DNA of 64,000 bases from Amoebophrya sp. A120 (lineage: Eukaryota > Protista > Dinoflagellata), in NCBI GenBank assembly GCA_905178155.1, contig CAJINV010000032.1:57488-121487 (forward strand), given 5' to 3'. Shown here piece by piece: positions 5,189 through 64,000 of the stretch. The notes beneath the pieces are model-generated. The model saw only the letters and a program-made list of their open reading frames with translations. It did no database searches and was not told where the DNA came from. Both the position numbers and the translations under genes were made by a program. How positions within the stretch are numbered: the first letter of the stretch is position 1; the number at the start of each line of letters is the position of its first letter.

Positions 5189-5189
5189 G

Positions 5190-15327: not shown

Positions 15328-15812
15328 GACGGGGAGGTCAGACCGCATGGTATGCTGCCCCCGCCCGAACCCCGCGGCCCAATTCTCTTCGCGAACGCGA
15401 CGGCCAGTCGCGTTCGCGAAGAGAATGGGAGGACGGGGAGGCCAGACAGCATGGTATGCTGCCCCCGCCCGAACCCCACGGCTCAATTCTCTTCGCGAAC
15501 GCGACGGCCAGTCGCGTTCGCGAAGAGAATGGGAGGACGGGGAGGCCAGACCGCATGGTATGCTGCCCCCGCCCGAACCCCACGGCCCAATTCTCTTCGC
15601 GAACGCGACGGCCAGTCGCGTTCGCGAAGAGAATGGAAGGACGGGGAGGCCAAACAGCATGGTGTGCTGCTGCCCCAGCCCGAACCCCACGGCTCAATTC
15701 TCTTCGCGAACGCGATGGCCAGTCGCGTTCGCGAAGGGAATGGGACGACGGGGAGGCCAAACAGGATGGTGTGCTGCCCCCGCCCGAACCACACGGCTCC
15801 ATTCTCTTCGCC
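15326..15812. repeat. 104-bp tandem repeat (~4.7 copies) carrying a long hairpin
   Basis: TCTCTTCGCGAACGCGAC-GGCCA-GTCGCGTTCGCGAAGAGA in each full unit. Confidence 0.92.
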
Positions 15813-15874: not shown

Positions 15875-17060
15875 TCATTTTGATTTATTTTGATACTCCT
15901 GCCTGTGCCTGGAAACCGTGCTTTTCCGATCCAGCAACGTGTTCTCCCCGTCGTGTCTTCCTCCATGGATTGGCTCGCTTGGCGCACCAGTGGGGCCCCA
16001 GGCTCGTTGTGTGTGGCCAGTGCTATTGGGATCGAGGTATCAAATGCCAAGATGCTGCAATCCTGGACGTGTGGACGAAACATGCACAGCAGGTTAGCTT
16101 TACCTATATTTGCATGAGAAAGTGAGCTCCAGTCTGACACAGTTCTTACTCATGCAACACAGGTTACCGCGCTGACATGCTGCGAATGGCCAATACCGCA
16201 TTACAGATCCACCAAACCCAGATGACCTTTTCGCATGTGATACGGGGTTATGGATTGTAAAAATGTCTGGGTCTGGAAGGTTGGAACTTGTAATCCTAGC
16301 TTTCCATACCTAGAAAATCTGTAAGTATTGCATAACCAACAAAAGTCGCAGCCTCTTTTGTCATGCAAAAACGCAGTTTCTCATGCGGATTGCCTATGAG
16401 AAAGCGTTTTGGGAAGTAGTCATGCCGGACTGCATTCGAGAGTGTTTTCATCATGCACATTTTAGCATCACAAGTTTCCAGACCCAGACATTTTTGCATT
16501 TGATAGGGGTGCAGCCACAGGTCAACGACGCCGTAGTATGCACTGCAAAAGTATCGCACTCGTACAAATGCAAGTCTTGCATTACAAATTTTTTTTCTAA
16601 GGTAAATCCGCATGACAAATTTTATTTCTCATGCTGAGGGAATTTGTAATGCATTTATACGAATACGATACTTTTGCACAGGATACGTAGGTGGTCTTGT
16701 CGATGTTGGCGAACTATGCATTGCAAATATGTCTGGGTCCACCTCTGCCGTCGTCGAGATGCAACATGTAAATCCTTGTCTTGCAGTTTCATTCGGTTTC
16801 GGAAAAAGTGTGTATTGCATTATGACCGCTGTCGGGTAAAAATGCGGTTTGCCCGGTTTGCCATGCACAAACACGATGATAAAGAACGCATGCAAAATCT
16901 GTCATGCGTGCCTGTACTTTTTTGTTCTCCTGTTTCATTTGTCCATAAGCCGGCATCACAAATTTCCAGGCCGCCCAGACATATTCACATTTGATATGGA
17001 CGAGTATCACTGTTTGACAGCCTCTTCTTGCTTTGACTCGCAAACGCAACAGCAAAATGT
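15875..17060 (-). CDS. Hypothetical protein or gene fragment with 4 introner introns
   Basis: Elements at 16038-16242, 16249-16505, 16537-16685 and 16715-16996; spliced frame NIDKTTYGVVDLWLHPDPNSTG...NKSK*; start not identified. Confidence 0.4.
16249..16505. mobile_element. Introner, family A
   Basis: Perfect GGGGT/GGGGT; only 6 nt from the previous element (16038-16242). Confidence 0.92.
16537..16685. mobile_element. Introner, family B
   Basis: Perfect CGTAG/CGTAG. Confidence 0.92.
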
Positions 17061-38280: not shown

Positions 38281-39222
38281 GCAAAGCAATGCTTGCATCA
38301 GAACATGTTCCAAACTCTATCCCGCGACGTGAACTCCTGCTTCCTCCACTATAAGGCACGGCACCGATACCAGTGTGGCCGGAAACTGCTGGACACCGTG
38401 GTAAACGCGTGGCTTCACTGTCGCTCGGTGGGACGCTGCAGGTTGACTTGCTGAGATCGAAAATTTCTGATCCGGAATGGTGCATTTGCACATGATCTTT
38501 TAGTTGCAACTGTGCACATTTCATATTAGCATTCGTTTGGTGCGAATCAGATTCCGACCTCCAGATACCTTGCTGTCACGCGACGGAGCCACTGCACTTT
38601 CGTTTCTTCCCGCACTTCGCGGTTTATCTCCAGCGTGAAGCACTGAAAACTGCGTCGGTTTCTTGATCATTTCTTCTGCAATTCGCGCCACCTGCACTTC
38701 GGGTTAAATCATACACCTCTCTCGCGGTCACTGGATTCCAAGAGATCCGCATTCTTCCCTGCGACACGCGTGACGGCCGCATCTTCTTCCCTGCGGCAAG
38801 GCATCCTCAACCGTTCCGTATTTATCCCATCATTTACTGCATTCGCAACCGTTCTTTCCGCTGGTAGTGCATGCGCTGCCACTCAGACCTCGTCCTCACC
38901 GCTACAGCAATGCCACCAATACCACCGTCAGCTAGAACGAGGCCGTTTTCAAAGCGCAAATCCCCGTCCAGCACAGTGCGGGCGTATCGCAGGCTCTGTC
39001 AGCCGCGAGTGCATCGCAGCCTCGCTTGTCGTCCGCAGTGCGCAGAACGTCTTGCGACTCGCATCAATCCGTCCGTTCTCTTCCCCCAGCAAAACGACTG
39101 CTGGTCCTCAGTCGGACGCGAAGACCCACTACTCCGCACTTCCCTGCCGTCCAGGCCGCATGGCGATTGATTCCGTCCCAAATACCGGCATCAGCATCTC
39201 TGCTCGCTGCCCGTAGCTCCAC

Positions 39223-39460
39223 TCAGAAACACGTGTAATACTCGTTTTCCCAGTACGAAGACGGCACTGGATCGCCTTCTTGCCATCGGCGCCAGCGGTA
39301 GACGACATTACTCGTAGTTTGCGGTCGCGCATGACAAGGCGATCTTGAAGCCCAGCGGAACAGGAGTTGAAACCCGTAGTCCAGGCTGATCCGCTGCTTC
39401 CAATTTTCGAAAAACGAGTTTCTCGTTGAGAAAGGATGGATGACCTTCACGCTGCCTCTT
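39223..39460 (-). pseudogene. Partial duplicate of the last zDHHC exon
   Basis: VIHPFSTRNSFFENWKQRISLDYGFQLL...YWENEYYTCF*. Confidence 0.8.
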
Positions 39461-39783
39461 CTTCTCGTTTTCGCAAGCGTTTCCGCCAGCCCTGTGTGCA
39501 TTAGAAATCCAGTACCTGGTACGCACCACTACAGCAATCCCGTCAATGCCACAGTCACGCAGGCCAGGGCGACACTCCACGCACGAATTCCCGTCCGCAA
39601 CACGCGCAGATTCCGTCAACCGCAGATGCGCCAACGGCTTACTTGTCCAAAAACAAAATGCGCACAGCCGTCTGCGACTCGCATTAAGCTGCACGTTCGT
39701 TCTCCCAGCAAAACGAGGACAGTTGGTCCTGAGTCAGGCGTCGACTTCTTCCCAGTACATTCTGCTCGCTGTTCGCAGCTCCG

Positions 39784-42179
39784 CTAGAAACACGAGTAAT
39801 ACTCGTTCTCCCAATACGAAAACGGCACTGGATCGCCTTCTTGCCATCGGCGCCAGCGGTAGACGATGTTGCTTGTAGTTTGCGGTCGTGCATGACAAGC
39901 TGATCGCGACGACACTCCCACCCAGCGCAACAGCATTTGAAATCCGTAGTCCAGACTGACCCGCTCCTTCCAGTTTGCCAGACAGGAGTTCTTCGTCGAG
40001 AAAGGATGAATGATTTTCACACGGCGATCAGGCACGAAGTCACTGCCAGCATCCACTGTTCCGTTCTGCGGCGTATCTGTCTGCGCAATCAATTCCGTGC
40101 TGTCCTCCGTGCGGTGGGGCGTAGGCGAACTGCAGCCACCTGCGTTGGAGATTCCATTCCCGTCTGGCTCGTTCCTGCAATACAAATTCCGCACGTAAAC
40201 CGGCTGCGACCAGTGCTCCCAGGTGGTCTGGTTCGTGGAAATGAGGCAGCTATGCAATGCAAAACCATCGTACTAGTAAAAATTGCATTACAAATTTCTT
40301 CAGCATGAGAAATAAAATTTGTAATGCGGATTTACGTTGAGAAAAGAATTTGTAATGCATTATTGTAATAAATACGAATACGATACTTTTGCACAGGGTA
40401 GTAGCAGTGATACAGCAATAGTCCACACGTGAAGGCCGTGAAGGGTAAGAGCGCAAGCAGCACCAGGAATATCTTCGTCTTCGAAGATATCATGCTCGGC
40501 ATTTCCGGGTTGAAAACCAGGTTTTTCCAGTGCAGAAAGCACAACACAACCGCCAGGAACAGTAGCAACACGAACCTCCCATGGTTCTTTTCGCCGACAC
40601 CGTATGCATTGCAAATATGTAGTCTGGGTCTGGAAGGTTGTAACTTGTCATGCTGTCTTTGGATTCTAAAAGAAGTTTGTGTTGCATGACCAGCAAGAGG
40701 AGTCCAGTTTGCTCTACGCGGAGACCACGAGGGCATTTCTCATGCGGAAGAGGCATCAGGAAGCCATCTAAAAATCTGTGATGCTAGGTCATGCATTACA
40801 GGCGTCATGGGTCACGCAAGTTTATGCATGACAAACCTGGCAATCTTCCAGACCCAGACGTATTTGCATTGGATACAACGCCGCCGATCCAAAAACAGTG
40901 GTGATCGAAGGTCAGGACGCACTGCTTGCTGACCCGACAGTGCCGTGACCGGAGAGGGCAGTAATGGTGGCATTGGTGACAGTAATGGTACTTGAGACCA
41001 CCACTTCCACTTCTACCAGGCGTTGATCTAGCTACTCGTCCATCGCATCGACGGCCCGCTGCATCTTCCTCGTGTGTCGAGACTATCCTCGTACGATGAT
41101 AGTCTCCGGCAGCAGTCGTCCTTTCGGGCACCGATGATGAGACTGATATTTCATCCTCGTACAACTGATGGTCAGCTTTGACGTTTTTCAGCAGGGTGTC
41201 TTCGCCCGGTCTGGAGCTAGCAGTCCCTGCTTCCTCCTCCAGCAAGGATGTTGCGCTCTTCGGATCGTCGAGAGTGGGCCCTTCGCCGCCAGCATCCGAT
41301 GGACGCCAGTATTGCGGCTCCTCCAGCACAAGCTGCCGTCCTTGAAAAAACCCGGGGTGGTACCGCGTCGTCCAGTAGATGGCGAAGAATAGAAGGTGTA
41401 AAACCATCTCCAAAAGCCCAGGGAGTGTCAGAAAACTGCAATTCTGATCCCCGTCACCAGGACATCCGCTGTTCGATGAACTTCTTCCGGCGGTCCTCTG
41501 TGCGGTCACGCTGAACCCGTAGCTGCACGTGACAAGAAACGCCACCATTCCGAAGCAGAAGTAGAAAACCTGGTCAGTTTGATTCAACGAAGATCCGGAT
41601 TTTGTCATGCGCCTTTCGCAATAGAAGTTATCGTAGATGAGCAGGTCGAGGTCTTGGTGCTCGCCGATCAGAAGCTTGCCGGTCTTGAAGTCTTATGCAT
41701 TGCAAAAGTAGCATTTGATCGTACCAGTTGGAGAAAATGCATGACAAATCTCGCTTGAAAGCTAAATCCGCATGACAAACGCCGGTTTTCATGCTGAGCA
41801 GATTTGTCATGCTGCACAGATTTGTCATGCTCATGCCGAGCGGATTTGTCATGCAGCTTGGCATTGACTAACTATCCAAGTACGATCACAAAACAATTTT
41901 TGCACAGGATATTCTTCGTGCGAGCGATTCCTCGATCCCCAGCTCTTTCAGCACTGAGTCGTCCCACTGTGGAATCGGAAGTTTTTCAAGAGAAGCAGTT
42001 GCTCGTCCAAAAGCGGTGCTCACTCCTCCGTTCGTTGAAAAATCCTTTCGCTCTACTTCTTGCTGTTCCTCCGGGAATCTGTCATGCGGTTCTTTTTCCT
42101 GCTCCACGCAACCTCCTTCCTCCGCAAAGAGCACCGTCCGCACGGACTGGAGATCGTGGTCTCGGATGAACGAGGGCAT
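39784..42179 (-). CDS. zDHHC protein S-palmitoyltransferase; 3 introner introns
   Basis: [44 protein letters not shown], four hydrophobic segments, NQTTWE and HPFS...NW motifs; introns 41694-41911, 40603-40875, 40251-40400; start uncertain. Confidence 0.92.
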
Positions 42180-42988
42180 CTCGCGTTGATCCTGATGTGT
42201 GAAGATCCGTTCGTCAGGCAGTATTACTTAGCTTGTCTTCGTCCACCGGTGCGGACAGAAAGCGCCGCCGGCCGTCGTGTGTCCCCCGGCCGTGGGAGCC
42301 TTTGCTAGGCTGTCTTGATGGTGGGCTTCTTCAGTTTCTTCTTATTTCTTCACTCGAAAAGGAAAATAGCAGCTTAGTGACGACGAGGAAGAGGAATAGC
42401 GACCGCATCTTTTGCTATATCGACGGGTTGTAAAAATTCTAGCAGGTACAATTGCCTCTCTCTGTCGTGCAGACCAGCCTATGAAGTTCAGTTTATTTAG
42501 CTCTGAAAGTGAAATAGAAATCGTAGGCAGAAGGTGTACCTAAAAGCAAAAAGGCCAAGGTCTGCATCACCGACGTCTTCGTATCCGGTCTACCGGGTTT
42601 TCGAAGTTTCTCTATACTGCTGGCTTCTTGTAATTCTTCCATTCTGATCAAAGGATCCACAAGACGAGCCGATTGATCTAAACAAAAACACTGTCAGCCA
42701 TAGACGAAAAACTTGACAGCACGAAACGCAAAGCATAAGCAGCAACTTCACTGCACAACGGCCAAAAGCCGCTTGCCGCGCAAACTCGGCGGCGGACAAC
42801 ACGCGCACCACTGGGGGGGGGGTTTTTTTGGACTATGGTGTCTAACGATCTCTATGCTTCGGCTATGTGTGCTGCAAAGAGCAAAGTCACTTTCAACAAC
42901 ATACATTTTCAACAATATTACTGAGTCACTTTCAACAGTCATTTTCAACAATATTATTCCGCGAGGAGGGACCTCCAAAGCGCGGGAC

Positions 42989-45900
42989 TTAGTCGTCTAT
43001 TGGTAGGTCTTCCTGCTTCAGAAAGCTGTGGGAGAACGTATGCAGGGCAAGCAAAAGACGTCTGGATCGGGAAGATTGCCAATCTTGCCATATAAGAGAT
43101 GTCGTGTTCGACTGGAGGTAAAAGGCGGCTGCTTTTCCTGGTCATGCAATACAGTTGTTCGCTTGTCGCATCACCCAGACCTAGCATCACAAAGTCGGAA
43201 TCTTCCGGAGGACCCAGACATGAAACATTCGCAATGCATAAAGGGCTTTCTGTGCCGAGATGCGGTCCGTGGGGTCGAGTGTCAGGCACTTCTCACAGAT
43301 ATCAAATGTAAAAATGTCTGGGTCTGGAAGATTGCCAGGTTTGTCATGCACATTTTGGATGACTCCTGATGTCTGTGATGCATGCCCTAGCATCACAGAT
43401 TTTGTGAGGGCTTCCTGATGCCTATACCGCATGGCAAATTCTCTTTCCGTGTAGCAAAACTTGGACTCTCTTTGCTGCTCATGCAATACAGATTTTTTTA
43501 GAATCCAAAATCCGCATGAGAAGTTGATGGATTCTTCCAGACCCAGACATTTTTACATTTGATAACAGAGTTTCCGAAACTGTCTCGCGTAGCTGCCCGC
43601 CTGCATGATCCGGCTCTGGGTTCTCTCAGGTTTTTTTCTTTTCTGTATGAGAGTGCACAACCCCCCCGGTTGCTCTCATTTGTCATGCAAAATTGCAAGT
43701 TGGCTTTGAGGAAGTGGAAGATGTCATGCAGAAGAGATACTACATTAACATTTTCGCTTTTGTTTCTGTTGCGAGGTCGTTCATGACAACCAAAGGAGAC
43801 AGCTTGAAGGAGTAGAATTGTGCACTCTCATACTCCTGCCAGCGTAGACGAAATCCTTTACCTTTCCCAATAGCGGTGGGTGGCAAGGCTTGACTGCCCG
43901 GGAGTACAGCTTCCCGTCCTTATCTTCGCGAATATCCGCTGCGCGTTGCTCGAGGAAGAATTCGGTCACTCGCGATTCCTTCGCCCTCTTATCCTGTGCA
44001 AAAGTTTCGTACTCGTAGTAATAAATCGCAGTTACGCATTATATACCTGTTTCTTAAGCTAAACCCGCATTACAAATCTATATTTCTCATGCTGAGGAAT
44101 AGGAAATTTGTAATGCATTTATACGAGTACGATGCTTTTGCAATGCATACCGCTTCAACAAGTCATCGCTGAACCCGCCACCCAGAGTCTCCATCTGCGA
44201 GACATGCTGGAGATCCCGCGTGTCAGGGTCGTCTTCGGTATGCATTGCAAATATGTGTTTGGGTCAGGATTTGTCATGCGAGTTTGGAAGTGCGAGAAGA
44301 TCTGTAAAATGCAAGCGTGCGCTTGAGCAACTTCTTTGTCATGCTGTGAAGCTCAGTTATTTGTCAGCCGTTTTACAAATGAATCTGCGATGAGCCAGGT
44401 CGCAAACTTCGAATTTCTGATACTACTACGCAGTACATGTGACTACTCTGCAACGCAACCTGCATCAGACGCATGAGATTCCAGAGGTGGACACAGATAG
44501 GCTCACAGTGCGTATTTCGTAGTCCGGTGCACCTCTTCGCCCAAATACAGCTCCAACAGAATGCTATGAGAGTGTCAGGATTGAAATCGACAAAGTTGAA
44601 ATAAGTTGTATATGCATAAAATGGATACCAATTGGGCCCACAGTGTCTAGTCGCTGCATGACAAATTTTGTCCGTACTTACCGGAGCCCAGTGTGTCATG
44701 CCGTTTAGGGCGAAGGGGCTCCCCTCTGTGATGTTAATCAGCAGCCCAATTACCGACCCTTAGCAGCGCCACAACCTGCCGCCCTTGCGTCCTCTGCAAT
44801 AGAGGCAATGTCTGCGTTGGATTTTATGCATGGCAAACTCTTTCAACTCTGACGATTTCGATCCTGACACAACCATAAATGCACCCGAAGGAGTAGACGT
44901 CGGTTTGGGTGTTCCATTTCATGCCGAGCATCACCTCGGGACTTCTGTAGTATCGTGTACTTATTTCGTTGAGTCGCTCATATCGCGGATCGTCTTCAAA
45001 GACCGCGCCCCCGCAGTCGATAATCTTGAAGCTGGGAAGTAGCGGGCGTCGGTATTGGCCGTCCTCCCAGTGCCCGAGCTGGAGCACTCCCTTCTCGTCC
45101 CGGTGCCTCGGAGTCCCTTCTCGTCCGGGTGCCTCCTGGCCACTGAAAGTGGCCCGGTGCTTCTTTTCCCAAGCTCTCCACCTGGTTCCGCCGGCCTTCT
45201 GCGCCAGTTGCTCGATGTGCGATCGGACAGGCGGACGGCACGGGCTAGTGCCCGGGAATTGCAGGAGAATATTTTCTATGCATTGCAAAGGCATCGCACT
45301 CGCACTAATTGCAGCCACGCATTACAAATTCTTTGCTCAAGGTAAGTCCGCATGACAAATCCGCTCTTTCATGCTGAGCAAACATGTGAAGACGCGATGA
45401 CAAGTACTAGCGCGATGCTTTTGAAATGCATACTTTCTGGCTTCAAATCCGTATGCACACAGCCCAGGCTGTGCATAAAGCACAACGCCTCGGAGCATCA
45501 ACTGCAAAAATTATGTTTGGGCCTGGAAGATTGCCAGGTATGTCATGCATATTTTGCACGGCCGGCGATGCCTGTACTTAATGCATGACCTAGCATCTTT
45601 ACAGATTTTTGCATTGCTTCCTGATGCATACTCCGCATCAGAAGTGTTCTCTTCGCGTAGCACAAGTCGGAGCATCACAAGCTGCAAGCTTCCAGACCGC
45701 GACACACTTGCAGGGGATAGGAAGCCGTCGCGCGCAATTGCTTGAATATCTCGGAGGAACATCCCTCGCAGTTTATTTCCTAGAAGCAGCTCCCACAGGC
45801 TGCCGTATCCTGCAGAAAAGCACTTCCGACATACCAGAGAGAAACAAAATTGTCATCGCTCTCTTCTGTGTTCCAAAAAGTTCTCCCGCAGCGGCAATTC

Positions 45901-48900
45901 AGCATGACAAAAAATTCGTATCTGTCATGCGGCCATGCATTACACTTTCCCAGTCCGAGATACATGACAGAACTTCTACGCCTCTAGATAGGAATGATCG
46001 CAAATTTCTAATGACAGAACGGCCACGACGAGAACAAGACCAACTCCTTTTTTTGCTGTGTGGGTGTACTACTTTTCTGCGGGATAGAAATCCGAGCTGC
46101 TCAAACACCAGCACCAAGTGCCGCCGTGGCCCGTCGCGGTGAAAAAATTTCTCCAGGAGCTGAACGAGCTTGTCTTATCGCAATGAAAAATCTTCCCTCC
46201 CCATATCGATAGCGCATCTTTCTGAAAATTTGCCATGCAGAATTGTAACCAGAAATCATGTCATCTGCCTTGCATTAAGGCAACTCCGGCCCTTACATAG
46301 GCTTAGATCTGCCTGCACTCGCCTTCTGCAAGACAAATTCGATTTGTGTACACAAGTCCCGCATCACAGATTCCCCTTTGATATAGGAAGGGAGGATTTT
46401 TCATTTTGATATGTATTTGCCGGGATATTCGTCCTCCTCCAACTGATTTGCACTCTGCTGTAGCCTATGCATTGTAAATACGTCTCGGTCCTCTGGAACA
46501 AGAATGTAAAATTGTGATGCGCTTTCTGGAAAAGACAAACCTCTCCTGTGTCGATTTTTGTCGCCAGAAGGCGGCATCACTCATTCAGACTAGGTACTTA
46601 TCAGGGAGCGCCGTCCCGAAAAAGAAAATGTGTCATGCTCTGTGTGCATTACCCACGTTCTTGCAGATGCAAATGCGAAAACTGCATGAAAAAAACATGA
46701 CTGCCTCCAGATCTAGACATTTTACCAGTGGATAAAGCCGCTTCAGCACTCGGTATTCCCCTAGCGCGTCACTCGTATGCGTCTTCCGGGCTCGTACCAC
46801 TTTTGCGGCGTACGCCTTGGTTCTCTCGATCCCTCTCGCCTTAGCCTGTTCCGCGTCACGGACCTCGAGGACGCGACCGAAAGTGCCGTCGCCCAACTGT
46901 TCCCTATGACAGTGCGCAACCCCCCCTCCCCGCCCCTTGTTTGTATCGCATGAACAGCAATACAAACTACACCAGCGACCCTGGACGAGCCTGTGCATGA
47001 CAAATTTATGTGTCTACTGTGGTACTCTTTGTGGTTTCAAAGTTTGTCGTGCAAACAGTGCCACAGGGAAGCGACTGGATTTGAGATTGTGATGCACGAC
47101 ACATGAGGGGGAGGGGGGGTTGTGCACGGTCATATTCCCCGATGACCCACTTGTTGTCCGGGCCTAAGAAATATCAAATGTAAAAGTGTCTGGGTCTGGA
47201 AGAGCACAACTTTGTCATGCACATTTTCCATGATCCGTGATGTCTGTGATGTATGCCATAGCATCACAGATTTCTTGAGCGCTTATCTATGCGCATCCAG
47301 CATGACAAATGCCCTCTCCGCGTAGCCAAAATTGAATCCTCTTGCTGGTCATGCAATACAAGTTTTTTTAGCATCCAAATGCAGCATCACAAGTTTGGCT
47401 CTTCCAGACCCAGACACTTTTACATTTGATAAGAAGTCTCCGGATTTGACCTCGAAGTGCGGCGCACTGTCTTCGTCGTCACTCGCCTCCTCCCGTTGAT
47501 AATTATCGGGTGGAAATTCTTCTCGGTCTGGAAATATGTGTTGCGGCTCGTCGCATTACAGATTCATTTTCATGCGTACAAATGCATGACAAACTGACTT
47601 GTTCCTGCCACCCGTACGAGAAAAAAGATCAATCGTATTCATGTATTACAGACCCTGCTGTGGCTGTCCTTGAAAGGCAGCAACACAGATTCAGACCCAG
47701 ACATATTTGCAATGCATAGTCCTCTGACTCTCCACTGCTACGCCCCCAGCTCCTGATTTCTCGCCGGTTCGACCTGGACCGCCAGTTACGCGGCGTTCTC
47801 CTGACTAAGGTATCGATGTCCAGCTCCGCGAGTTTGCAGCTCGTGTTGGCCTCATCATCCTCATCGGCACAAGCTTGTTCTTCCCGATCTCTTTCCTGAT
47901 CTTCCTCCGGGAGGTTCATATGCTGATACTCCAGTTCTTGCTCTAGCGCGCCGGGTCTGCATGCTGCCTTTCTCCGGATTCGTTCGCACCACTTGTGTAT
48001 CCGGACCAAATTTCTCACCATAGTCTGCAGCTTGTGAACCAATTTACGAACCCGGATTTCACGCAGCAACGTCCCACAGTACAAGCAAAGTTGCACAGCG
48101 AGGACACAGCGGCGGAACTTTTTACTCGTCAGCGCGACGCGCTGTTGGTGATGCTGTTGAGCCCTCGTCGGCTGTTGGTTTTCTTGCTCCAGATTTTGCT
48201 CGTGGGCGTGACGACGATTCCCGCCGCGCGTGGAAGCCGGGCCGTGAGTAACATCCGCTTCCTGTTTGCCCTCGCTCGAAGGACCATTAGCGGCAATTTC
48301 ACTTGTCTGTCTTTCGCGTCGTGGTCTCTTGTCTGTCTTTCGCGTCGTGGTCTCCTTCCCGTCAGGACGAACCCCGAGCGTCTGGCGCGCCGAGCCTCTG
48401 CCCGCCCGCTTCGCCAGCGCTCTTTGTTTCCGTGCTGCTGCGATTTGTAGAGCGATCTGCTCTTTGCGCGTCTGCAACGTCGATTTCGGCGACGCAAGTA
48501 TCATCTGCGGCGCTCCGCCCTCGTGGGGATCTGACTCAGCACACCCTGCTGCAGCAGACGACGTCTTCATAGCGCTTACCGGGGCAGGCTGTTGGTCTGC
48601 TTGTTGGTGTGGTTGCGTTTGTAGATGGTTTGTAGTCGAGGCTGCGGCCCCAGAAGATGACGACTGAGTCACGACTTTTGCTTGGGGAGCACGAAATATG
48701 CATTGCAAATATTTCTGGGTCTGAAAGAGTTCCAACTTGTGACGTCGCTCCCCCTGGATCATCATGCAAACACCCTTGTTGTATGATAGTACCAAGTAAA
48801 GTTGTCTGCTTTACTTCACCATCAAATGGAGACGAGGGAGTTTGTCATGCAGGAAAGGCACGATAGAGACGAATGCAGAATCTGGCATACTACCTCCTGC

Positions 48901-49240
48901 ATGATTGTGGTTCCACTTGTCATGGTCCATGAAAAGCGAAATCCTGCATCCCGACCCAAAAATATTTGCATCTGGTACTTTCGGGTTTTTTCATCCCGTG
49001 GCGCTGCTGGATGGCATGGGATGTTGTAGCTGGAGGCGCGTTGAAATTGAAAACACTGTAATCCGTGTTCGCTGCTCGTCTCAGCTGCTGCAGCTGCTGC
49101 CGTATCTGCTCTTGCTCTGGGTTGTACGCGAACAACGTCTGCTCTTGCTCCTGTATTTGTTGCTGTGTCATCGTCATCAGCTGCTGCTGCTGGATTAAAC
49201 GCTGTAGCTGCGGCCGCCCCCATTGCTCCTGTTGCGGCAT
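42989..49240 (-). CDS. CMGC protein kinase, CLK/LAMMER-like (K1); Gln-rich N-terminus; 15 introner introns
   Basis: LGDGTFGRV, YAAKVV, RHLVLVFE, HTDLKPENIL, IIDCG, STRYYRSPEV, DVYSFGCI, QHVSQMETLGG, CLTLDPTDRISAQKALSHSF; introns start at 48697, 47504, 47172, 46905, 46466, 46176, 45806, 45496, 45277, 44565, 44239, 43990, 43646, 43300, 43039 (+ coordinates). Confidence 0.9.
43300..43564. mobile_element. Introner, family A (young)
   Basis: Perfect 32-bp TIR TATCAAATGTAAAAATGTCTGGGTCTGGAAGA and perfect ACAGA/ACAGA. Confidence 0.96.
43990..44149. mobile_element. Introner, family B, opposite orientation to 51972-52121
   Basis: TATCCTGTGCAAAAG ... CTTTTGCAATGCATA; flanks CCTCT/CCGCT. Confidence 0.9.
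44565..44877. mobile_element. Introner, family G (TATGnnnGTGTCAGGAT(C/T)GAAATCG)
   Basis: Perfect AATGC/AATGC; splits FGCI|LLELY; sister at 62496-62816. Confidence 0.92.
45277..45432. mobile_element. Introner, family B, in the kinase catalytic loop
   Basis: Splits HTDLKPE|NIL; flanks TTTTC/CTTTC. Confidence 0.93.
46176..46411. mobile_element. Introner, family E (TAT(T/C)GCnAnGAAAAATC + C-run)
   Basis: Flanks TGTCT/TGTAT; sisters at 52441, 54822 and 55719. Confidence 0.88.
46905..47134. mobile_element. Introner, family F
   Basis: Perfect TTCCC/TTCCC. Confidence 0.92.
47172..47431. mobile_element. Introner, family A
   Basis: Perfect TIR of more than 30 bp; flanks AGAAA/AGAAG. Confidence 0.94.
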
Positions 49241-49439
49241 GGCTCGGCTTGTGTCTGAGTCTTATTATTCCTGACACAAAAATACCTTTCGACACGGTTT
49301 TGGAACGGATTGGATCCACAGAAAGAAAACGGGTCGTGTATAGACTGGTTGATACTGCTGTTAGTGTTCTTACCCTACACAACTACTAAGGAGCACCAAC
49401 GTGGTCGTGCAATCGACGTTCTGTTGCAGGTTTAAACTT

Positions 49440-50516
49440 TAAAAACCAAAACCACTGAGACAGGATCCAGCATCTTCTAATGTTGAGCAGGCTTAAAAGC
49501 CAAAACCATTGAGACAGGATCCGGCATCTTCCAATGCTGAGCAGGGTTAAAAGCCAAAACCATTGAGACAGGATCCGGCATCCTCCAATGTTGAGCAGGC
49601 TTGAAAACCAAAACCATTGAGACAGGATCCGGCATCTTCCAATGCTGAGCAGGGTTAAAAGCCAAAACCATTGAGACAGGATCCGGCATCCTCCAATGTT
49701 GAGCAGGCTTGAAAACCAAAACCATTGAGACAGGATCCGGCATCTTCCAATGCTGAGCAGGGTTAAAAGCCAAAACCATTGAGACAGGATCCGGCATCCT
49801 CCAATGTTGAAGCAGGCTTAAAAACTAAAACCATTGAGACAGGATCCGGCATCTTCCAATGCTGAGCAGGGTTACAAGCCAAAACCATTGAGACAGGATC
49901 CGGCATCTTCCAATGTTGAGCAGGCTTAAAAGCCAAAACCATTGAGACAGGATCCGGCATCCTCCAATGTTGAGCAGGCTTAAAAGCCAAAACCATTGAG
50001 ACAGGATCCGGCATCTTCCAATGCTGAGCAGGGTTAAAAGCCAAAACCATTGAGACAGGATCCGGCATCCTCCAATGTTGAGCAGGCTTAAAAACCAAAA
50101 CCATTGAGACAGGATCCGGCATCTTCCAATGCTGAGCAGGGTTAAAAGCCAAAACCATTGAGACAGGATCCGGCATCCTCCAATGTTGAAGCAGGCTTAA
50201 AAACTAAAACCATTGAGACAGGATCCGGCATCTTCCAATGCTGAGCAGGGTTACAAGCCAAAACCATTGAGACAGGATCCGGCATCTTCCAATGTTGAGC
50301 AGGCTTAAAAGCCAAAACCATTGAGACAGGATCCGGCATCCTCCAATGTTGAGCAGGCTTAAAAGCCAAAACCATTGAGACAGGATCCGGCATCCTCCAA
50401 TGTTGAGCAGGCTTAAAAGCCAAAACCATTGAGACAGGATCCGGCATCTTCCAGTGCTGAGCAGGCTTAAAAACTAAGACCATTGAGCAGGCTCAAAAAC
50501 CAAAACCATTGAGACT
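49440..50516. repeat. 54-bp tandem array (~20 copies) with a 379-bp higher-order period
   Basis: AAAACCATTGAGACAGGATCCGGCATC(T/C)TCCAATG(C/T)TGAGCAGG unit; a +1 A variant recurs at ~49810 and ~50189. Confidence 0.95.
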
Positions 50517-51050
50517 GATTCAAAATGTTTCCTTCAAGATGAACAACACCATCTTCCACATTGACATCTGAGCTAGCCTGTTTAAATATACTTCTTCATC
50601 CTTCTGTGCAGTTTTCTTCGTTCTCCCACAGTACAACGTCTATAGGTCGTGAGTGGAACACGGCCGAAAAAAGAAAAAACACGGACGCAGAAAGTATTGC
50701 TGCTAACCCGGAAGCTTCGTCTTGTTTTCATGCTTTTTCAATATGTGAGTGCCTTGCTTCATGTTGATTTCGTATCATGTGGGCCACTATGTATGCTGTT
50801 GATGTGTTGCACTAGGTGAAAAGCAAAATCCGTCACCATCGTCATCATCTTTGTGTTTGTCCGTAACATCATGATTTGTCTGCTGTCATGGATTTCTCTG
50901 TGAGTAGACGCACACACGAGCACAGATTTGTGACGCTCGACACCTTCTCCGCAACCCACAGGCCTTCCTGGTTGCGGTAGAACGCTCGGTCGGCAACGTC
51001 CTTGATGTGTAAAAAGCAAAATCCGTGCGTGAAGATAAACTGCGTCGCGT

Positions 51051-54000
51051 TCAGTCGTGTGAGGTCACGGGTCGGTGAAAAAAATTGTGTGCTAACGCCC
51101 TGTATGCAATGCAAAGATGTCTGGATCATCTGGAAAAACGGAAGACTTGTCATGCAGGTTTCATCCTATGACCCGTGAAGATTCCTGGCACAAATAACAA
51201 ACTAGCAAGATAGATTCTGTGAGATGTGTGTCATGCCTCTGCATGCGACACAGGTTTTTGCACGGTTGCAGACTTAGCATGACAAGTCGCGTCCTTCGAG
51301 ACGTAGACATCTTTACAAGGCATACCTTCTGCGACGTGATTCGGGTGGCCGGGTCCACGGTGAGGCGTTATCAAATGTAAAAATGTCTGGGCCTGAAAGA
51401 TTTCTAGACTTGTCATGCAGGTTTTGCATGAGTCTTGATGTCTGTGATGCGTGGCCTAGCATCACAGACTTTTTGAGGGCTTCTTGATGCCTATTCCGCA
51501 TTACAAATGCCATCTCAGCGTAGCAAAAAACGCATTCCCTTTGCTGCTCATGCAATACAGATTTTTTTACAATCCAAATGCAGCATCGCAAGTTCCAATC
51601 TTCCAGACCCAGATATTTTTACATTTGATAGGCGGGTATCGAATCCAAGATCTCTGGGTCTGGAAATGGATTTATGTTGCTGAGTCCTCATCTTGCAACA
51701 TAAGTATACACACTCGTCGCTTGTACGGCACTCCGGCATGACAGGGTTCTATTTCGCGAGATGTGTAATGAAGATTCTTTCATTCCTATATTTGCATGAC
51801 AAACGCCCGTGCAGCATAGCAGAAAATCTCGCCACCGCCAATCGTCTCCATGCATGACAGACACAGATCTGCTCAGTGTCCTTTGTTCAAGTCGTGCATT
51901 ACAGATCCAGACCCAGATCTTCGATATTTGCAATGCATAACACGCTTCGCAAATTGACCGGAAGAACTCGGTATGCAATGCAAAAGCATCGTACTAGTAT
52001 AAATCGCATGACAAATTTTCTCAGCATGAGAAAGAAAATTTGTAATGCGGATTTAACCTGAGAACGAAATTTGTAATGCATGAATGCGATTAGTACGAGT
52101 ACGATACTTTTGCACAGGATACTCGGCGTGGCCACCTGGTTCGCCTCCGGCGATCATGTTGGTATCAAGTGTAAAAATGTCTGGGTCTGGAAGAATGCGA
52201 ACTTGTAATGCAGATTTTACATGGCCCGTGACGTCTGTGATGTATTCCCTGGCATCACAGATTTTCTGAGTGCTTCTTGATGCCTATTCCGCATGACAAA
52301 TGGCCTCCCCGCGTAGCAGAAACTGGGCTCCTCTTGCTGGTCATGCAATACAGATTTTTCTAGAATCCAAAATTAGCATGACAAACTTGCATTCTTCCAG
52401 ACCCAGACATTTTTACATTTGATAGTTGGCTAGCGTGTCTTATTGCGAGGAAAAATCCCCCCTCCCAATATCGAAAAGGAAATTTGTGCTGCTGGATTTG
52501 CGTACACAAATCAGCTCTGTCTTGCGTACAAGGATGGAAACGGCACCCGTGTGGCGCATTGTACAGCGAGTCTGTCATGCTGTTTCGCCTATTTCAGACT
52601 TGTTGCGCATGTTCCGCTGCTGGCCGGATGCGTACCCAAATAGGGGCAGAGTATGCCGACAAGCTCTTACTGCAATAGAAAGTTCATTTGTGTAGGTGTA
52701 CGTCATGCAGCAACACGAATTGATGTCTTTTGAATTATGGGGTGGGGGATTGTTTCACTTTGATATGTCTACGGCCTCCTCTGGTGGTGTACAAGACCGC
52801 ACCTTATGCATTGCAAATAAGTATTCTGGGTCTGCAAAATAAGTAGTTGCACAAAGACGGCGTGGCACAGATGCATCAAAGATTGTGTAAAAGCTTGCTT
52901 CTTAATGCCGAACCCGCATGTTGACACATGGCAAATTATCGGGCTTATGCAACACAGATTTCTATTTGTGCGATCCAGCTGTTAGTTCAGCATGACACGT
53001 TGCATAATGTTTTTCTCAGACCCAGTTCGATGCTTTCCATGCGTAGACCTGTCGTGAGTACCACATCTTGTCGAGCCCTTGCACCGGATTCTTCCATCTT
53101 CGAAAGGCCCCGCGAAACTTCGACTCCCGCCCAGTTCGCAAAAAAGCATCGCTGAAGCATCCGCCTATGGTCTGCATCTGCAGCATCTGCTGCACATACC
53201 CTAGGTAGTTGCTCGGCGCAGAATCACGGCTGCGGTCGCTACCGGAGCCCTCTATCGCAAGAAAAAACTGTTTCACTGTAAACTTGTAATGCAGAAAATG
53301 CATCTACCGAGAAGTGTTTGTCTTGCTACACATGCAAGACAATGGATTTTGATCTGTGTTTTCCCTTAGGAATCTCGCATGGCAAATTTTCTCTGTCATG
53401 TAGGACAAACTTGTGATGCAAAATAACTTGCAAAATTCTTACAGTGAAACACTTTTTTCGTACGATACCCTCGCTTCCACTGCTAGTGACGTTCAAGATA
53501 TCACCGAGGTATAGCTCCATTAGTATGCATCCGAAGGAGTAGACATCCGCTCGCGCGTCCCACGCGGCTCCAATCATCACTTCGGGGCTGCGGTAGCTTG
53601 GGGTAGAAATTTCCGCGTTGTTTGGTCGTCCGTGCTCGTCCTGAAAGATTGCCCCACCGCAATCGATATGGATTGTAAAAATGTCTGGGTCTGGAAGAGT
53701 GTGAACTTGTCATGCAGGTTTTCCATGACCCGTGAGGTCTGGAATTCGGGGCCTAGCATGGCAGAGTCTGAGAGGTCTCTTTCATGCCTATCCTGCATGA
53801 GAAACTACCTCCCGACTTGGTCAAAACTGGACGACTTTTGGTAATCATGCAACACAGATTTTTGCATGCTGCAGATTTAGCATGACAAGTTGCAATCTTC
53901 CAGACCCAGACATTTTTACATTTGATAATCGATTATCTTGATTTTCGCAACTGTCGGACGCCGGTACTCGCCGTCTTGGAAGCACTATCCTGAGGAAAAA

Positions 54001-57000
54001 CGTACCCACACCAGAGTTGTAATGCAGATTTGCAAAGACAGGAAGACTTGTAACGCGCATCCCCATGAGAGCCATTTCCAATCGTGTTTTGGAATTTGTG
54101 ATGCTGTGAACAGGACGAGCAGATAAATCTGTGATGCGGCTGCCCTTGCTAACCTGCACTACACTGAAGAGTGCAACTTGTCATGCGTGACCCACAAAAC
54201 TCCTAGGTTTGCGTTGCATCATCCCCATCCTGACTCTGGTGTGGGGACGTTTTTACACAGGATAAGCGCCCCTGCTTGATTGCCCCGTCTACCTCCCTCC
54301 GGGTGGGTCCCACTGCGTGGCCTAAAAAACTGCGACACTGGTTCTGCGTCCATTGTCGGTAGTCGTCCCCCCCAGCCTGCTATCAACTGTAAAAATCCCT
54401 GGATGTCTGGAAGAATTCATGTTTGTCATGCTTGTCTGGCATGACTCTTAAATCTGTCATGCACGTTACCCAAGAGCTCCGTTTTTCTGTCATGCAGAAA
54501 CGTAGTTTGTCATGCAGAATAGGCAACACCTAAAAGCTCAGAAACTTGTCATGCTGAGCCAGCAGTTGTGGCCTCCTCATGATACGCCACACAGCATCAC
54601 AAGTTTCCAGACATCCTGGGATTTTTGCATTTGATACCTGCCGGGCTTTGTCCTCGTCGAAGCACCTTGCCGGTGGACGTGTCGCGTAGGTCGCAGGAAA
54701 TTGGAACAATATGTTCTCCGGCTTGAGGTCGGTGTGCACGCATTTGATAGAGTGAAGAAATGCTAAACCCTCGAACGTGTCCTTCGCAACCTGCTGGATG
54801 TCTTGTAAAAACATCGGTCTCTATTTCAAAGTGAAAAAAGCCCCCACGACCCCATAGTCAGAAGACAATTTGTGTTTTCTTTTTACCGGATTTTTTGTGT
54901 ACACAAATGAACTTTGTATTGCAGCAAGAGCTTGTCGGCATACTTATTCGGAGCCCATTTGGGAAGCATCCGGCTAGCAGCTTCGCCTGAGAAGCAAGGC
55001 TGACATAGGCGAAAACGCATGACAGCTTCGCTGTACAACAATGCGCCAGAACTACACGGCTGCGGCCCTTTGCCTTCGCCTTGTATGCAAGACAAAGCCG
55101 ATTTGTGATCACAAATTAACATCACAATAATTTCTTTTTCAATATGGGGAGGCGGGGGGGTTTTTCCTCTCAGTACTGTATTGATTGCCGGTCAAATGGT
55201 GGTACAGGCTGGCTTATGAAATGCAAAAGCATCGTACTAGTAGCAATCGCATTACAAATTTGCTCAGCATGAAAAATGGAATTTGTAATGAGGATTTAGG
55301 TTAGGGGGGAGATCTGTAATGCATGACTGCGATTACTACGAGTACGATACTTTTGCACAGGATATGGCTGCGAGGCTTTCGAAGACCATGACGAGATTAT
55401 GAACTGCAAAAGTATAGTACTCGTAGCACATGCATTACAAATGTTTTTCTTGAGGTAAAAATAAAAAATCCGCATTACGTTTACAAATTTTCTTTCTCAT
55501 GTTGAGGCATTTAATACTATATACGAGTACAAGACTTTTGCATTCCATAGAAATGTCGCCCGTGCGTGAACTGATCCACGAGCTGCACAATTCTCTTCTT
55601 ACCAGCACAAACGCCGTCTTTGAACTCCTTGCCCTGTTCCTGAATTTGCAGCAGAATTCGGTACTCGTCTTCAGCGTCTTGTCGAGGTTTTTCGCTGGAT
55701 TTAATCACCTTCGCAGCATATTGTGAGGAAAAATCCCCCCTCCCCATAATGAAAAGGTACATTTTTGGAAATTTGTGATGCTTATTTGTGGTCACAAATC
55801 GTCTCTGTCTTGCAAGGAGGCAAACCCAGAAGACTTCCCGCATTATGCCAGCGGTTTGTGATGCTTTTGGGCCTACGGCATAGACTTTTGTCATGCTGGG
55901 CGCCTAGGCTAAAACCTCTCCGCTCAGGCTTGCTACGGGCCTGCAGTCCTCTAATGCAAGACAGGGCTGATTTGTGTACGCAAATCCAGCATCAGAAATT
56001 TCGTTTTGATATGGGGAGGGGGAATTTTTCCTCGCAATACAGCAAAGTCTTTGTTCTGCACCTCGAGAATTCCGCGTGCAGCAGCTTCTTATCCTGAGTA
56101 AAAACGTACCCACCCCAGAGTTGTAATGCAGATTTGCAATGACAAAGACATTTGTGATGCGCATCCCCATGAGAGCCATTGCCAATCGTGTTTTGGAATT
56201 TGTGATGCTGTGAACAGGATCAGCAGGTCGATTTGTGATGCGGCTTTCCTTGCTAACTTGCACTACCTTACGGACTGAAACTTGTCATGCGTGACTCCCA
56301 AAACTCCTAGGTTTGTGTTGCAAAATCCCCATCTTGACTCTGGTGTGGGTACGTTTTTACTCAGGATACTTCTTCCTCCGTCCCCACGAACTTCACCTGG
56401 ATCACTCGGCCAAACGTGTCGTTATGAATTGAAAACGTTTCTGGGTCTCCTGGACGATGATTTCGAAGTAGTTTGCCATGCTATTTTGGTATGACTCTAC
56501 TGCGCCCTGTGCCGCGTGGCCTCGCAGAGCTCCTCGCGTAACGCAGTTTCTCATGCGAGACACACAACACAGAGCCACGAAAAAACAAAAGCTGTCATGC
56601 TTGGCGACACATCATACTGTCCTTATGGTTCACTGACATGCATCACAAGTTTCCAGACCCAGACATATTTGCCGTGGATATCCGTCTCCCAAGTGCGATC
56701 CGATCTGCCATTTCTCCTCGTCTCCTAGGAACTGGAGTATGACAGTGCACAACTCCCTCTCCAAAACTCCAAATCCAAGTCCTTCCCTGTGGCACTGTTT
56801 GGATGACAGATTCCGGAAGCCCAAACAGTACTACAACAGGCGCATGAACTTGTCATGCACAGGCTCCAGGTGTGGCGGTGTTTGTGTTGCTGTTCATGCA
56901 ATACAAATCAGGAGGAGGTGGAGTTATGCACTCTCATATGGAGGTTGGAAAATTGAAAATGCTCGGGGCTGGTGCTACGACTGGAAGATCGGTCGCCGCC

Positions 57001-59263
57001 GCGTGATTCGCGTCTCTGCGCTTGTATCCAATGCAAAAATGTCTCGGTCTGGAAGAATGCAGATTTTTGTCATGCTGTTTTTGCACGACACAAAATGTTT
57101 GTCATGGAAGCCCTACCATCACAGACTTCAAGAAGCTTCCGCATTGCTTAATCCGCATGACAAATCCCCCATTTTACTGACAGGAATTGGGCACCTTTTG
57201 CTGCCTATGCATGAGAGATTTGTCTGTGTTGTGAAATGCGCATCACAAGTCCGCATCCTTCCAGACCCAGACATATTTGCAATGCATAGCTTGATGGGTA
57301 AATTGAAAGCGTTCGCGTCTACGAATGGAAGATCGGTCGCGGCCTGGTTGTCGTCTCTGCGCTTGATAATTCCCGCCTCGTTCATCCGCGATCCGACGCT
57401 GCCTGCTATCCTCCCACTCTCGTCGTTTCGCTCCCCTCCTGCTCCCCTCCTCCTCCGGCTCGTTTCGCTCTCGTCGTCTCTCTCCCCCGCGGCTTTCCCG
57501 TCCTCCGGATCGCTGCCTATCGCCGGCCCGCCGTACATTTTCGCGTCCTAATATCCACTGCAAACATGTGTGGGTCTGGAAAAGTCGTGTAAAAGTCTGT
57601 CATGCAGGTTTTGGAGTATAAATATTCTCGAATTATTTGCACATCGCTAATGCAAAAGTAGCAAATTACAGGCTTGCGCGAGGTCTCTTGGTGCGCCCCA
57701 CTGTCTCGCATGAGAACTGCGCTGTTTGCGTAGCGGAATACGGGCAGCTCTTCGAGCCTCTGTACTACAGATATATAATATGTGTGATGCAGAGTTTGCA
57801 TTACAAGTTGAAGTTTCCGTCCACCATCCTTCCAGACCCACACATGTTTTCCAGCCGTATGCTGCTCCTGCTGACGAGTCTGCCCTCCTTGCCGTCCGTT
57901 TCTCTTGCTTTCACTCCGTCGTCTACCTCGGGTTTTTCTGCAGTGTAAAAGTATTGCACTCGTATAAGTGCATTACAAATTTCCTCAGCATGAGAAATAA
58001 AATTTGTAATGCTGATTTACCTTGAGAAAAAGATTTGTAATGCATGATTGCAATACGAGTGCGATACTTTTGCACAGGATAGCTCTGCTGCGCCGGTCCT
58101 CCAGATCGCGAGCACGACCTCGTCGCTCGACAGCATCTCCGACACTATCCTGTGCAAAAACTTCCCCACCCCGTAGTGAAGCATGGGGATTGGCTACACA
58201 AAGCCAACGTCTTTTGGCTGTCGCGCATGACAAGTTTGGGCTCGCCGTGTAATAGCGTTTTCCTTTTGTAGCTGCATCACAAATCGATCCGCTCATGCTG
58301 ATTCTAGCATGACAAACTGCCAGACAGCATAATACAGAATTCTCTTCATGGGGCTCTGTATGGCAAAACATTATGAGGCTTGCGAACTTGCATGACAACT
58401 ATGGGCGGGGGACGTTTTTACTCAGGATAACCACCTCCGGAGGTCCGCCTTCTGCTACGGGTTCCACGTCGGCTGCGTTGTCCTTTCTGGTGGTTGGTAT
58501 GGAAAGAAAAAAAAGTGCTGAAGAAGTTGTACACTGTGCTTTAGGAAAACAAATCCAAGGCAGGCAGTACCAGTTTCAACATCCGCGTTTTATTTAGTAA
58601 CCTCTCCTATGCAGATGATGCATGCCGGGTTTGCATGCTGAAGCTCAAGTCCCAAATCATGTCAACGCGTAATAAAACTGCAAAAGCAATTTTTTTCTAT
58701 GCGTACTCGAAGACGACGTCGCTGCTATCACGAAGATGGCCCCCTCGTCGAACGTCGTCACTGCGTGAAAAGCGAGCGGCGCCGGGTGCAGCGTGCGGGC
58801 TGGGAGATGGCCGCGTCGTGCCCCGTTGATTCGTGCGGGGTTTGCCTTGATGACCACGGTGGTCGTGTTGGTGGTGGTGGTAGGCACTACTCGACGGCGC
58901 CGCGTTTCCGGTTTGCGGCTGGCTCACGTGCCGCGCGCCGTCGTTCTCGTTGCCGATGCTGTCCGCATGCCCGGGCAACCTGGGCCATCCGAGCAGCTCT
59001 GCGATTTCCGGCGAAGCTTCGGGGAGGCCTTCCATGTCCCGTAGCGTCAAACTGAGATAAAGAGCCGTTTCTAGCATGTCCACATCTTCGCCATCTCCTA
59101 CCGCGTTCTGAAATATCCGCACCTTGCCCCGGATGTCGGCTTGCTGGTTGATCGTTTTAAATAGCGCGTCGTAAGTTCTCCGCTTCTCGGCGTCGTCCTG
59201 GTACTGCCTGAATCTGCGCCATGCCCTCCTATATGCGGCTGAATATGCTGCGTGAAACTGCAT
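51051..59263 (-). CDS. CMGC protein kinase, CLK/LAMMER-like (K2); Arg/Ser-rich N-terminus; 23 introner introns
   Basis: LGDGTFGRV, YAAKVI, HTDLKPENIL, IIDCG, STPSYRSPEV, DVYSFGCILMELY, CLTVDPATRITSQKALAHNF; introns start at 58498, 58146, 57937, 57552, 57025, 56738, 56423, 56090, 55719, 55398, 55215, 54822, 54381, 53986, 53667, 53253, 52805, 52441, 52163, 51972, 51637, 51369, 51103; start codon uncertain. Confidence 0.9.
51972..52121. mobile_element. Introner, family B
   Basis: Perfect CTCGG/CTCGG. Confidence 0.94.
52163..52424. mobile_element. Introner, family A
   Basis: Perfect GTTGG/GTTGG. Confidence 0.94.
52441..52765. mobile_element. Introner, family E
   Basis: Perfect TGTCT/TGTCT. Confidence 0.9.
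53253..53467. mobile_element. Introner, family C
   Basis: Perfect CCCTC/CCCTC. Confidence 0.94.
53667..53927. mobile_element. Introner, family A, in the kinase DxG motif
   Basis: Perfect ATCGA/ATCGA; splits IID|CG. Confidence 0.94.
53986..54264. mobile_element. Introner, family D (279 bp; TATCCTGAGnAAAAACGTACCCAC)
   Basis: Flanks AGCAC/AGCGC; sisters 56090-56368 and 63016-63294 have the same length. Confidence 0.94.
55215..55364. mobile_element. Introner, family B
   Basis: Perfect TGGCT/TGGCT. Confidence 0.93.
55719..56039. mobile_element. Introner, family E
   Basis: Perfect CAGCA/CAGCA. Confidence 0.93.
56090..56368. mobile_element. Introner, family D
   Basis: Perfect CTTCT/CTTCT. Confidence 0.94.
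56423..56680. mobile_element. Introner, family A, in the kinase Gly-rich loop
   Basis: Splits LGDG|TFG; flanks GTCGT/TCCGT. Confidence 0.9.
56738..56938. mobile_element. Introner, family F
   Basis: Perfect TGGAG/TGGAG. Confidence 0.92.
57025..57288. mobile_element. Introner, family A
   Basis: Perfect GCTTG/GCTTG; the paralogous internal repeat at ~57352-57366 lacks it. Confidence 0.94.
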
Positions 59264-63294: not shown

Positions 63295-64000
63295 CCACGT
63301 ATCACCGAAGACATGCTATTCTCGGAAGCCGGAACTTGTTGTTGCACTTGGTCGGCCGCTTCGTCTGCCGGATAGAGGATTTCACTTCCCATCCGCAATT
63401 TCTTGCTTGTCCTCTGTCCGCTTTCGCCGCCCGCACTTTTGATGATCATACTATCTGCAGCAGTACTTGCGGGCCCCTGTGCTGCGCTCGCCGGGGAGGC
63501 GTCCCTCAGGAAGGATTTCGATCTCTTCCCACTATCCAGGAGCAAAAAGAAGAGAGCATAGCATAAAAAATTCTGTATCCTTTATGCAAAAACGAATATT
63601 AACGAAACAATCTCTGTCTCCTGCCTGGCCACGATGGCCGCCGGCACGGCATGGTCGGGGCTCGTGGTGCATGACAGGCTCTTGCTAGGAACACTTTTCA
63701 AATAAAAGTAGAACTAGTAGTAGAAGTGCGTGATATTCGTTTTTGCATTTACAAACTATGCTATGCTCGTGATGATTTTTACTGTGATACCCAGCGAATG
63801 ACGCCCTCTTCTGCAGGGCAGAGACCATCTCACTTGCACGCGCGGCGGCACTCCTCCTACCACTCGTGTGCGCGAGCGCATGGGGCAGAAAACTGCCAAG
63901 TCTTCCGGAGCCCTCTCGTTGCAGCGCCGAACCGGGACCGACGGCGCTCTTTATTTTCTTTCTCAACTTTTTTGCCCTACGTTTTTGCCCACCGGTATCC

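Follow-up and report, generated by a model that had tools for sequence, protein, structure and literature searches.

In a stretch of 64,000 nucleotides (nt) from the marine parasitic dinoflagellate Amoebophrya sp. A120 (contig CAJINV010000032.1, positions 57,488 to 121,487; hereafter the window), genes are interrupted by inserted elements known as introners, which are very probably removed from RNA in one fixed register, with cuts 1 nt before the TAT that opens each element and 4 nt after the ATA that closes it. In the following, an element is the stretch from TAT to ATA, flanked on each side by one copy of a 5-nt direct repeat, and k is the number of bases, out of these five, that the mRNA retains from the upstream copy. 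A first-pass annotation of the window had proposed k = 4, i.e. introns of the form N-TAT...ATA-NNNN. At element 56423-56680 k is 4, and the same value likely applies to all elements. The elements themselves are known; the rule for their splice register is new and supported by RNA. The minus strand carries all the genes studied.

The introners of A120 have been described as inverted repeats that start with TAT, followed by seven variable bases and a run of A, and bordered by direct repeats of 3-5 nt, with a total of 29,850 (Farhat et al. 2021; PMC7789003). There, the position of the introner border is given as variable or unknown in the legends of Fig. 3 and S23, and the splicing mechanism of the ~30,000 introners is left open. 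The inserts in the window match this description and are these published introners, so that the register, not the elements, is the new point. P0001, a database protein that carries the label Amoebophrya sp. A120, has 100% identity to an exon of one of the two kinase genes in the window (kinase B).

Manual curation gave 53 elements in four genes whose strand is set by long open frames; window elements of uncertain strand were left aside. Once each element is excised together with 5 nt, frames of 629 amino acids (aa) open in kinase A (22 elements), of 880 aa in kinase B (15 elements), of 595 aa in a DHHC gene (3 elements) and of 1348 aa in an ankyrin gene (13 elements). Among the 53 introns, TAT is found at the 5' end of 47 and ATA at the 3' end of 48, and the A-run of the inverted repeat is visible as A at +12, +13 and +14 in 44, 51 and 45, respectively. 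For 49 candidates, whose ends were paired solely by the inverted repeat and whose flanks were compared afterwards at lengths 2-9, the flanks have a mean identity of 0.72 at length 5 (18 perfect) and of 0.25-0.33 at the seven other lengths. A second set, obtained by a pattern scan from 135 loci of another public assembly, comprises 294 distinct elements of the same families and gives a flank identity of 0.91 at 5 nt versus 0.25-0.32 at other lengths; the 5-nt repeat is not due to chance. With terminal inverted repeats (TIRs) and a target duplication of fixed length, the elements have the features of miniature inverted-repeat transposable elements (MITEs) or TIR DNA transposons. In an all-against-all comparison, the window elements include repeated families, which are removed from transcripts, and members of one family are inserted both ways.

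The repeats are perfect in 18 of the 53 curated window elements and in 224 of the 294 from the second assembly, where this suggests younger insertions. No ortholog of the window genes was found among the 135 loci; one locus (L016) was considered and rejected, as its long match to the window consists of two element families in the same order. With a codon model that made 40 of 41 calls correctly on the window at the threshold used, we oriented 212 of the 277 second-assembly elements with at least three matching repeat bases, which gives a pooled set of 265 elements (53 from the window and 212 from the second assembly).

Junctions were read from contigs of four runs (X1-X4) of one sample, only guessed to be RNA, which were placed on positions 39000-58900 and 55176-59000. 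Of 68 joints on the first interval 15 were listed, and ten of these, being joins between repeat copies, were set aside; on the second interval, nine were listed and two set aside. Fifteen single-element junctions, four of them from contig piece tables, and one tandem junction were compared with each k. The register is fixed at element 56423-56680, where positions 56418 and 56682 are adjacent in an X1 contig of 688 nt and depth 5.5 and not one base at the joint could be assigned to both sides; the listed pieces of this contig show neither gaps nor other letters. The intron, 56419-56681, consists of one base, the element and four bases, has the ends AT...GA and fits k = 4 only. Nine of the 16 junctions have identical repeat copies and show just the removal of the element and 5 nt. 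The remaining seven are informative, permitting k = 4 at 56423, 0-4 at 52805, 3-5 at 51103, 54824 and 55398, 2-5 at 53986 and 3-4 at the upstream element of the tandem pair, and their intersection is k = 4 alone; if k were drawn uniformly at random for each junction, such a fit would have a probability of ~0.002. At 54824-55175, k<=2 would also create a stop codon. The first-pass annotation was to be given up if cDNA showed a variable or another fixed register; where RNA covered the elements, no listed junction demands a k other than 4, and the six junctions besides the unique joint at 56423-56680 are compatible with it. A run of raw reads with the same species label (X8) gave a partial match on element sequence and no joints. 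None of the listed contigs bridges the KPEN, FE, 45806, 46466, 57552 or 58146 junctions, which counts neither for nor against the register. The features read from RNA are the following:

56419..56681, minus strand: RNA-fixed intron; element 56423-56680; X1 joint 56418>56682, k = 4
56681..56685, minus strand: its upstream repeat copy ACGGA, first four bases exonic
56418..56422, minus strand: its downstream repeat copy ACGAC, last base exonic
55394..55550, minus strand: intron; element 55398-55549; joint 55392>55550 in X1, X2 and X4; k>=3
54820..55176, minus strand: intron; element 54824-55175 (TAC...AAA); X3 contig pieces; k>=3
53982..54265, minus strand: intron; element 53986-54264; joint 53979>54264 in X1-X3; k>=2
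52801..53046, minus strand: intron; element 52805-53045 (5' TAC); X1 and X2 contig pieces start at 53047; k<=4
51633..51940, minus strand: upstream intron of a tandem pair; element 51637-51939; joint 51365>51941, skip 575, in X1-X3; k = 3-4
51632..51632, minus strand: predicted exon of 1 nt separating the tandem elements when k = 4 applies to both; nested removal would yield an identical product
51365..51631, minus strand: downstream intron of the tandem pair; element 51369-51630; tandem joint
51099..51325, minus strand: intron; element 51103-51324; joint 51097>51325 in X1-X3; k>=3

The two tandem elements stand 6 nt apart (51631-51636), and the RNA loses both plus 10 nt, with one base remaining as a 1-nt exon or after nested removal. 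Another pair 6 nt apart is found at 16243-16248; the closest neighbouring pair found in the second assembly is separated by 23 nt or more. At 63295-63299, two elements are possibly just 5 nt apart, with zero exon between them, the second of which (63300-63789) has weak inverted repeats (12/20). Across 44352-45092, an X2 contig is free of element 44565-44877 yet keeps part of 44239-44514, like a partly spliced transcript. Finally, the 631-nt element 13472-14102 carries a second, internal copy of its 3' end near 13823, and only the outer end restores the frame.

The proposal of k = 4 had come from kinase residues, and these were reassessed in an alignment of 145 out of 150 homologs. The two sites at its centre, which belong to two different paralogous kinase genes, read as claimed: at 45277-45432 (copies GAAAG/GAAAA), k<=4 gives KPEN and k = 5 gives KPES, and at 56423-56680 (ACGGA/ACGAC), k>=4 gives GDGTFG and k<=3 gives GDDTFG. 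The residues concerned are indeed near-invariant, the GxGxxG glycine being present in 138/138 non-gap rows and the catalytic-loop Asn in 145/145 homologs. A third site, 45496-45719 (CTTCC/CTCCG), which has the 3' end ATG instead of ATA, does yield FE with k = 3-4, as had been stated; the argument built on it is weak because this column holds E in 45 and Q in 14 of the 145 homologs. To these we add 45806-46086, where the repeat copies are 0/5 identical and k<=4 retains a Ser that is present in 140/145 homologs, R being present in none. P0001 rules out k = 5 at 43646 (GRK, versus GRR if k = 5) and requires k>=3 at 44239 and 43039; it is silent on KPEN because it starts inside element 45277-45432. 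The RNA runs and the annotation are possibly non-independent. Matching of paralogs at non-invariant sites can mislead, since at 53986 the paralog P0002 agrees with the downstream copy (C) and the RNA retains the upstream copy (R). In these predicted translations, then, the invariant kinase residues agree with k = 4, bounding k from both sides.

Pfam returned only Pkinase for both kinases, which we take to be CLK/LAMMER-like from their motifs. Protein searches with one exon each of kinase A and of the ankyrin gene gave no matches, and kinase B is represented in the protein database solely by a 3' fragment that starts inside an element. The genes and the introns placed by protein are as follows:

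51051..57551 (approximate), minus strand: kinase paralog A; 19 elements, 3 more upstream with uncertain frame; 629-aa frame; Pkinase match
42989..49240, minus strand: kinase paralog B; 15 elements; 880-aa frame; 3' half = P0001; Pkinase match
45273..45433, minus strand: predicted intron at the KPEN site; element 45277-45432; k<=4 on a protein basis only
45492..45720, minus strand: predicted intron; element 45496-45719 (ATG 3' end); k = 3-4 weakly favoured
45802..46087, minus strand: predicted intron; element 45806-46086; k<=4 by the conserved Ser
43642..43833, minus strand: predicted intron; element 43646-43832; k = 2-4 from the P0001 protein

Tandem arrays lie between the kinase genes (49439-50491, period 54 nt) and at 2273-5186 (127), 5189-6541 (142) and 15322-15811 (104).

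The first-pass annotation had further held that the cut does not depend on the bases at which it falls, and this is what we see: the cuts of the 265 elements have a coding-like background, in both orientations within a family. In the k = 4 register, the information at +1 and -4 to -1 of the 53 introns is <=0.04 bit, the composition at +1 is A12 C15 G14 T12, and the ends form 33 different pairs, with GT-AG in 2; a GT or GC donor with an AG acceptor is not the pattern of these introns. It had also been suggested to examine whether drift is confined to upstream position 5 and downstream positions 1-4 of the repeat copies. A codon-likelihood comparison of the exonic copy over 50 second-assembly mismatches was powerless in this regard and showed one stop codon, at position 2 of the downstream copy, where it is expected if k>=2.

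What performs these cuts is less clear than where they fall. With modest confidence, we favour an account in which 5-nt-duplicating, hairpin-ended transposon copies are cut out by the host spliceosome with relaxed end recognition. The TA(T) of the element would be taken as donor positions +2, +3 (and +4), preceded at the first intron position by any base that the duplication happens to provide; the paired inverted repeats would bring the intron ends together, replacing U1; and the acceptor would be fixed by distance, 4 nt beyond the stem. A cut at this point would re-establish the frame wherever the element has inserted. In PMC7789003, U1 is reported as undetected in A120, U2, U4, U5 and U6 as present, and 83/89 spliceosomal proteins as retained. 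The N-UAU of the introners coincides with +2 to +4 of the yeast donor GUAUGU (PMC11585973), and transposon-derived non-canonical introns of Fritillaria, which need the U2 spliceosome, provide a precedent (PMC11282704, 10.1101/2025.08.15.670264). By analogy, we lean slightly towards spliceosomal chemistry for introner removal.

Terminal variants are not shared evenly by the two element ends. The window introns show no exception to T+2, A+3 and A-7, and variation at the mirror positions (Fisher p=0.002, post hoc). Variants in the first two TIR bases number 0 at 5' versus 5 at 3' ends in the window and 2 versus 7 in the second assembly (pooled 2 versus 12, p=0.013, post hoc); at TIR position 3, they number 6 versus 0 and 3 versus 3 (pooled p=0.15).

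Several observations weigh against a spliceosome. The 5'/3' skew of the first two TIR bases is significant in neither set by itself (p=0.06 and 0.18), and two second-assembly elements bear 5' TA variants. GT-AG ends occur in 8/265 pooled elements versus 5.0 expected, the coding background accounts for the +1/-1 and -2/-1 pairs (p=0.66 and 0.24, 265 elements), and there is no drift towards G, GT or AG among the 265 elements (G at +1, 5 versus 5). The second splicing step depends centrally on G-G and A-A contacts (PMC11585973), and the corresponding G+1/G-1 and A-2/branch-A contacts are unconstrained in these introns. The predicted stem would conceal the splice sites from small nuclear RNAs until unwound. 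No branch-point motif is visible in the 53 introns, and the A at -7 (53/53 in the window) is not supported as a branch point, as the second assembly failed to replicate it (3 versus 3) and no motif surrounds it; the position itself falls inside the branch-A distance range of -6 to -8 derived for Yarrowia and Trichomonas from PMC2483917.

Two further patterns were noted at the ends. An orientation bias of TATC/CATA (14 versus 6, p=0.12, window) was rejected, as it found no replication in the second assembly. The combination of T4 and A5 in the repeat, by which TAT would be directly preceded by a second TA, is seen once versus 6.5 expected among the 265 elements, which is not significant over 16 cells.

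The same register could also be produced by a spliceosome-independent nuclease and ligase that measure from the stem and leave 1-nt and 4-nt overhangs, as suspected for euglenids, an alternative that we consider less likely but a serious competitor. The missing signal at +1 and -4 to -1, the insertion of families in both orientations, the long stem predicted by folding and the lack of a visible branch motif all speak for it, as does the failure to detect U1 in A120 (PMC7789003); moreover, euglenid introns pair +4..+6 with -8..-6 and are released as circles. The predicted stem, however, is strongest at +10..+16 and loses strength towards the ends (at +9..+16, 33-43 of 52 are paired). For 56423-56680, folding leaves the outermost ~14 inverted-repeat bases single-stranded, and even so this junction is cut in register. 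The scarcity of TA variants at 5' ends, and an offset that equals the canonical donor alignment and the register of Polarella class 12, likewise argue for the relaxed spliceosome. The hairpin as a ruler for the cut positions, as the first-pass annotation would have it, is unproven. Tentatively, one may think more broadly of an activity in A120 that splices by a route other than the lariat pathway and takes out every hairpin of the form N-UAU...AUA-NNNN, whichever way it is inserted, whatever bases stand at the two cuts, and even where the exon in between is just 1 nt long. If this were true, these transposons would be fully portable introns, harmless anywhere in a gene.

A register that slides, with k varying between junctions, is improbable. 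Six of the seven informative RNA junctions permit more than one k, the Fig. 3 and S23 legends of PMC7789003 give variable positions, and minor forms would be lost from contigs; but no junction shown needs a k other than 4, the invariant residues limit k on both sides, and the published spread would be expected from aligner ambiguity within identical repeats. Some points do count against a single register. The bound k<=4 comes from three RNA junctions, and the bound k>=4 from a single contig of depth 5.5; the whole RNA set is one sample of guessed RNA status. In Table S4 of PMC7789003, 8/9 leading non-canonical A120 end pairs carry A at -2, unlike our sets, in which it is found in 14/53 and 49/212; mixed strands or aligner placement are possible reasons for the discrepancy. 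In favour of the rule genome-wide, if only as a hint, all nine of these pairs have T at +2 and none starts with TA; this agrees with k = 4 or with the mirror value, k = 1, and the RNA rules out the latter. Least probable by far is an artefact, i.e. a reverse-transcriptase template switch between the direct repeats across the hairpin or DNA of an insert-free allele: a hairpin with direct repeats is a recognised setting for such switches and the runs are merely guessed to be RNA, but the 56423 joint lacks a shared base and its product is a chimera of both repeat copies, which argues against switching on shared repeat bases (a switch on the shared first three would yield a k<=3 product), the open frames of 595-1348 aa require removal of the elements, and the listed exon pieces agree with the window letter for letter despite drifted repeat copies.

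The rule N-TAT...ATA-NNNN gives exact donor and acceptor coordinates for genome re-annotation, and these predict where lariats or circles should be found and guide the design of reporters, which makes the splicing question directly testable. It also explains how the elements could spread without GT, AG or a target motif. If removal is spliceosomal, this spliceosome tolerates every base at +1, -2 and -1, positions deemed essential by structural work; if it is not, an undescribed mRNA splicing pathway is at work.

We found no published statement of a fixed register for A120, including in the accessible parts of PMC12130899, PMC12005148, PMC11282704 and PMC11453091; most subscription papers and theses fell outside the search, and part of the rule may be visible in the figures of PMC7789003. 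The elements studied here share with the introners of that work the inverted repeats of TAT, seven variable bases and an A-run, the direct repeats and the removal from RNA, and differ in the border, which is variable or unknown there and fixed at k = 4 here. In strain A25, the nine leading non-canonical pairs of Table S4 begin with TT and the repeats begin with TTA followed by purines; by analogy, TA may occupy +2/+3 there too.

Among other systems, the class 12 introner-like elements of Polarella glacialis (10.1101/2020.10.14.339549) also have a 5-nt duplication, and in one of their two frames, with NNAGG as the duplication, the donor is formed by duplication base 5 and the first element base and the acceptor by bases 3-4, i.e. 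k = 4. They require NNAGG (or NAGGH) targets and a single orientation, whereas the A120 elements are found in both orientations and NNAGG is unenriched among their targets (8/265 versus 5.0 expected). The Polarella register suggests, by analogy, a route from canonical to relaxed use. The nonconventional introns of euglenids (PMC4770533, PMC11282704) likewise have non-canonical ends, direct repeats, a suspected MITE origin and a stem that pairs the two ends at a fixed offset. Their stem starts from +4/-6 (CAG/CTG), that of A120 from +2/-5 (TAT/ATA), so that the euglenid pairing of +4..+6 with -8..-6 and a 5' purine does not describe A120, whose pairing register is +2:-5; euglenid cuts are purine/pyrimidine-biased and yield circular products, whereas the A120 cuts are unbiased. 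Finally, the introns of Fritillaria borealis (PMC11282704, 10.1101/2025.08.15.670264) likewise come from inverted-repeat transposons and are mostly non-GT-AG, but their preferred ends, AG-AC and AG-AT, are supplied by the repeats, whereas the terminal bases of A120 introners are host-derived and unconstrained.

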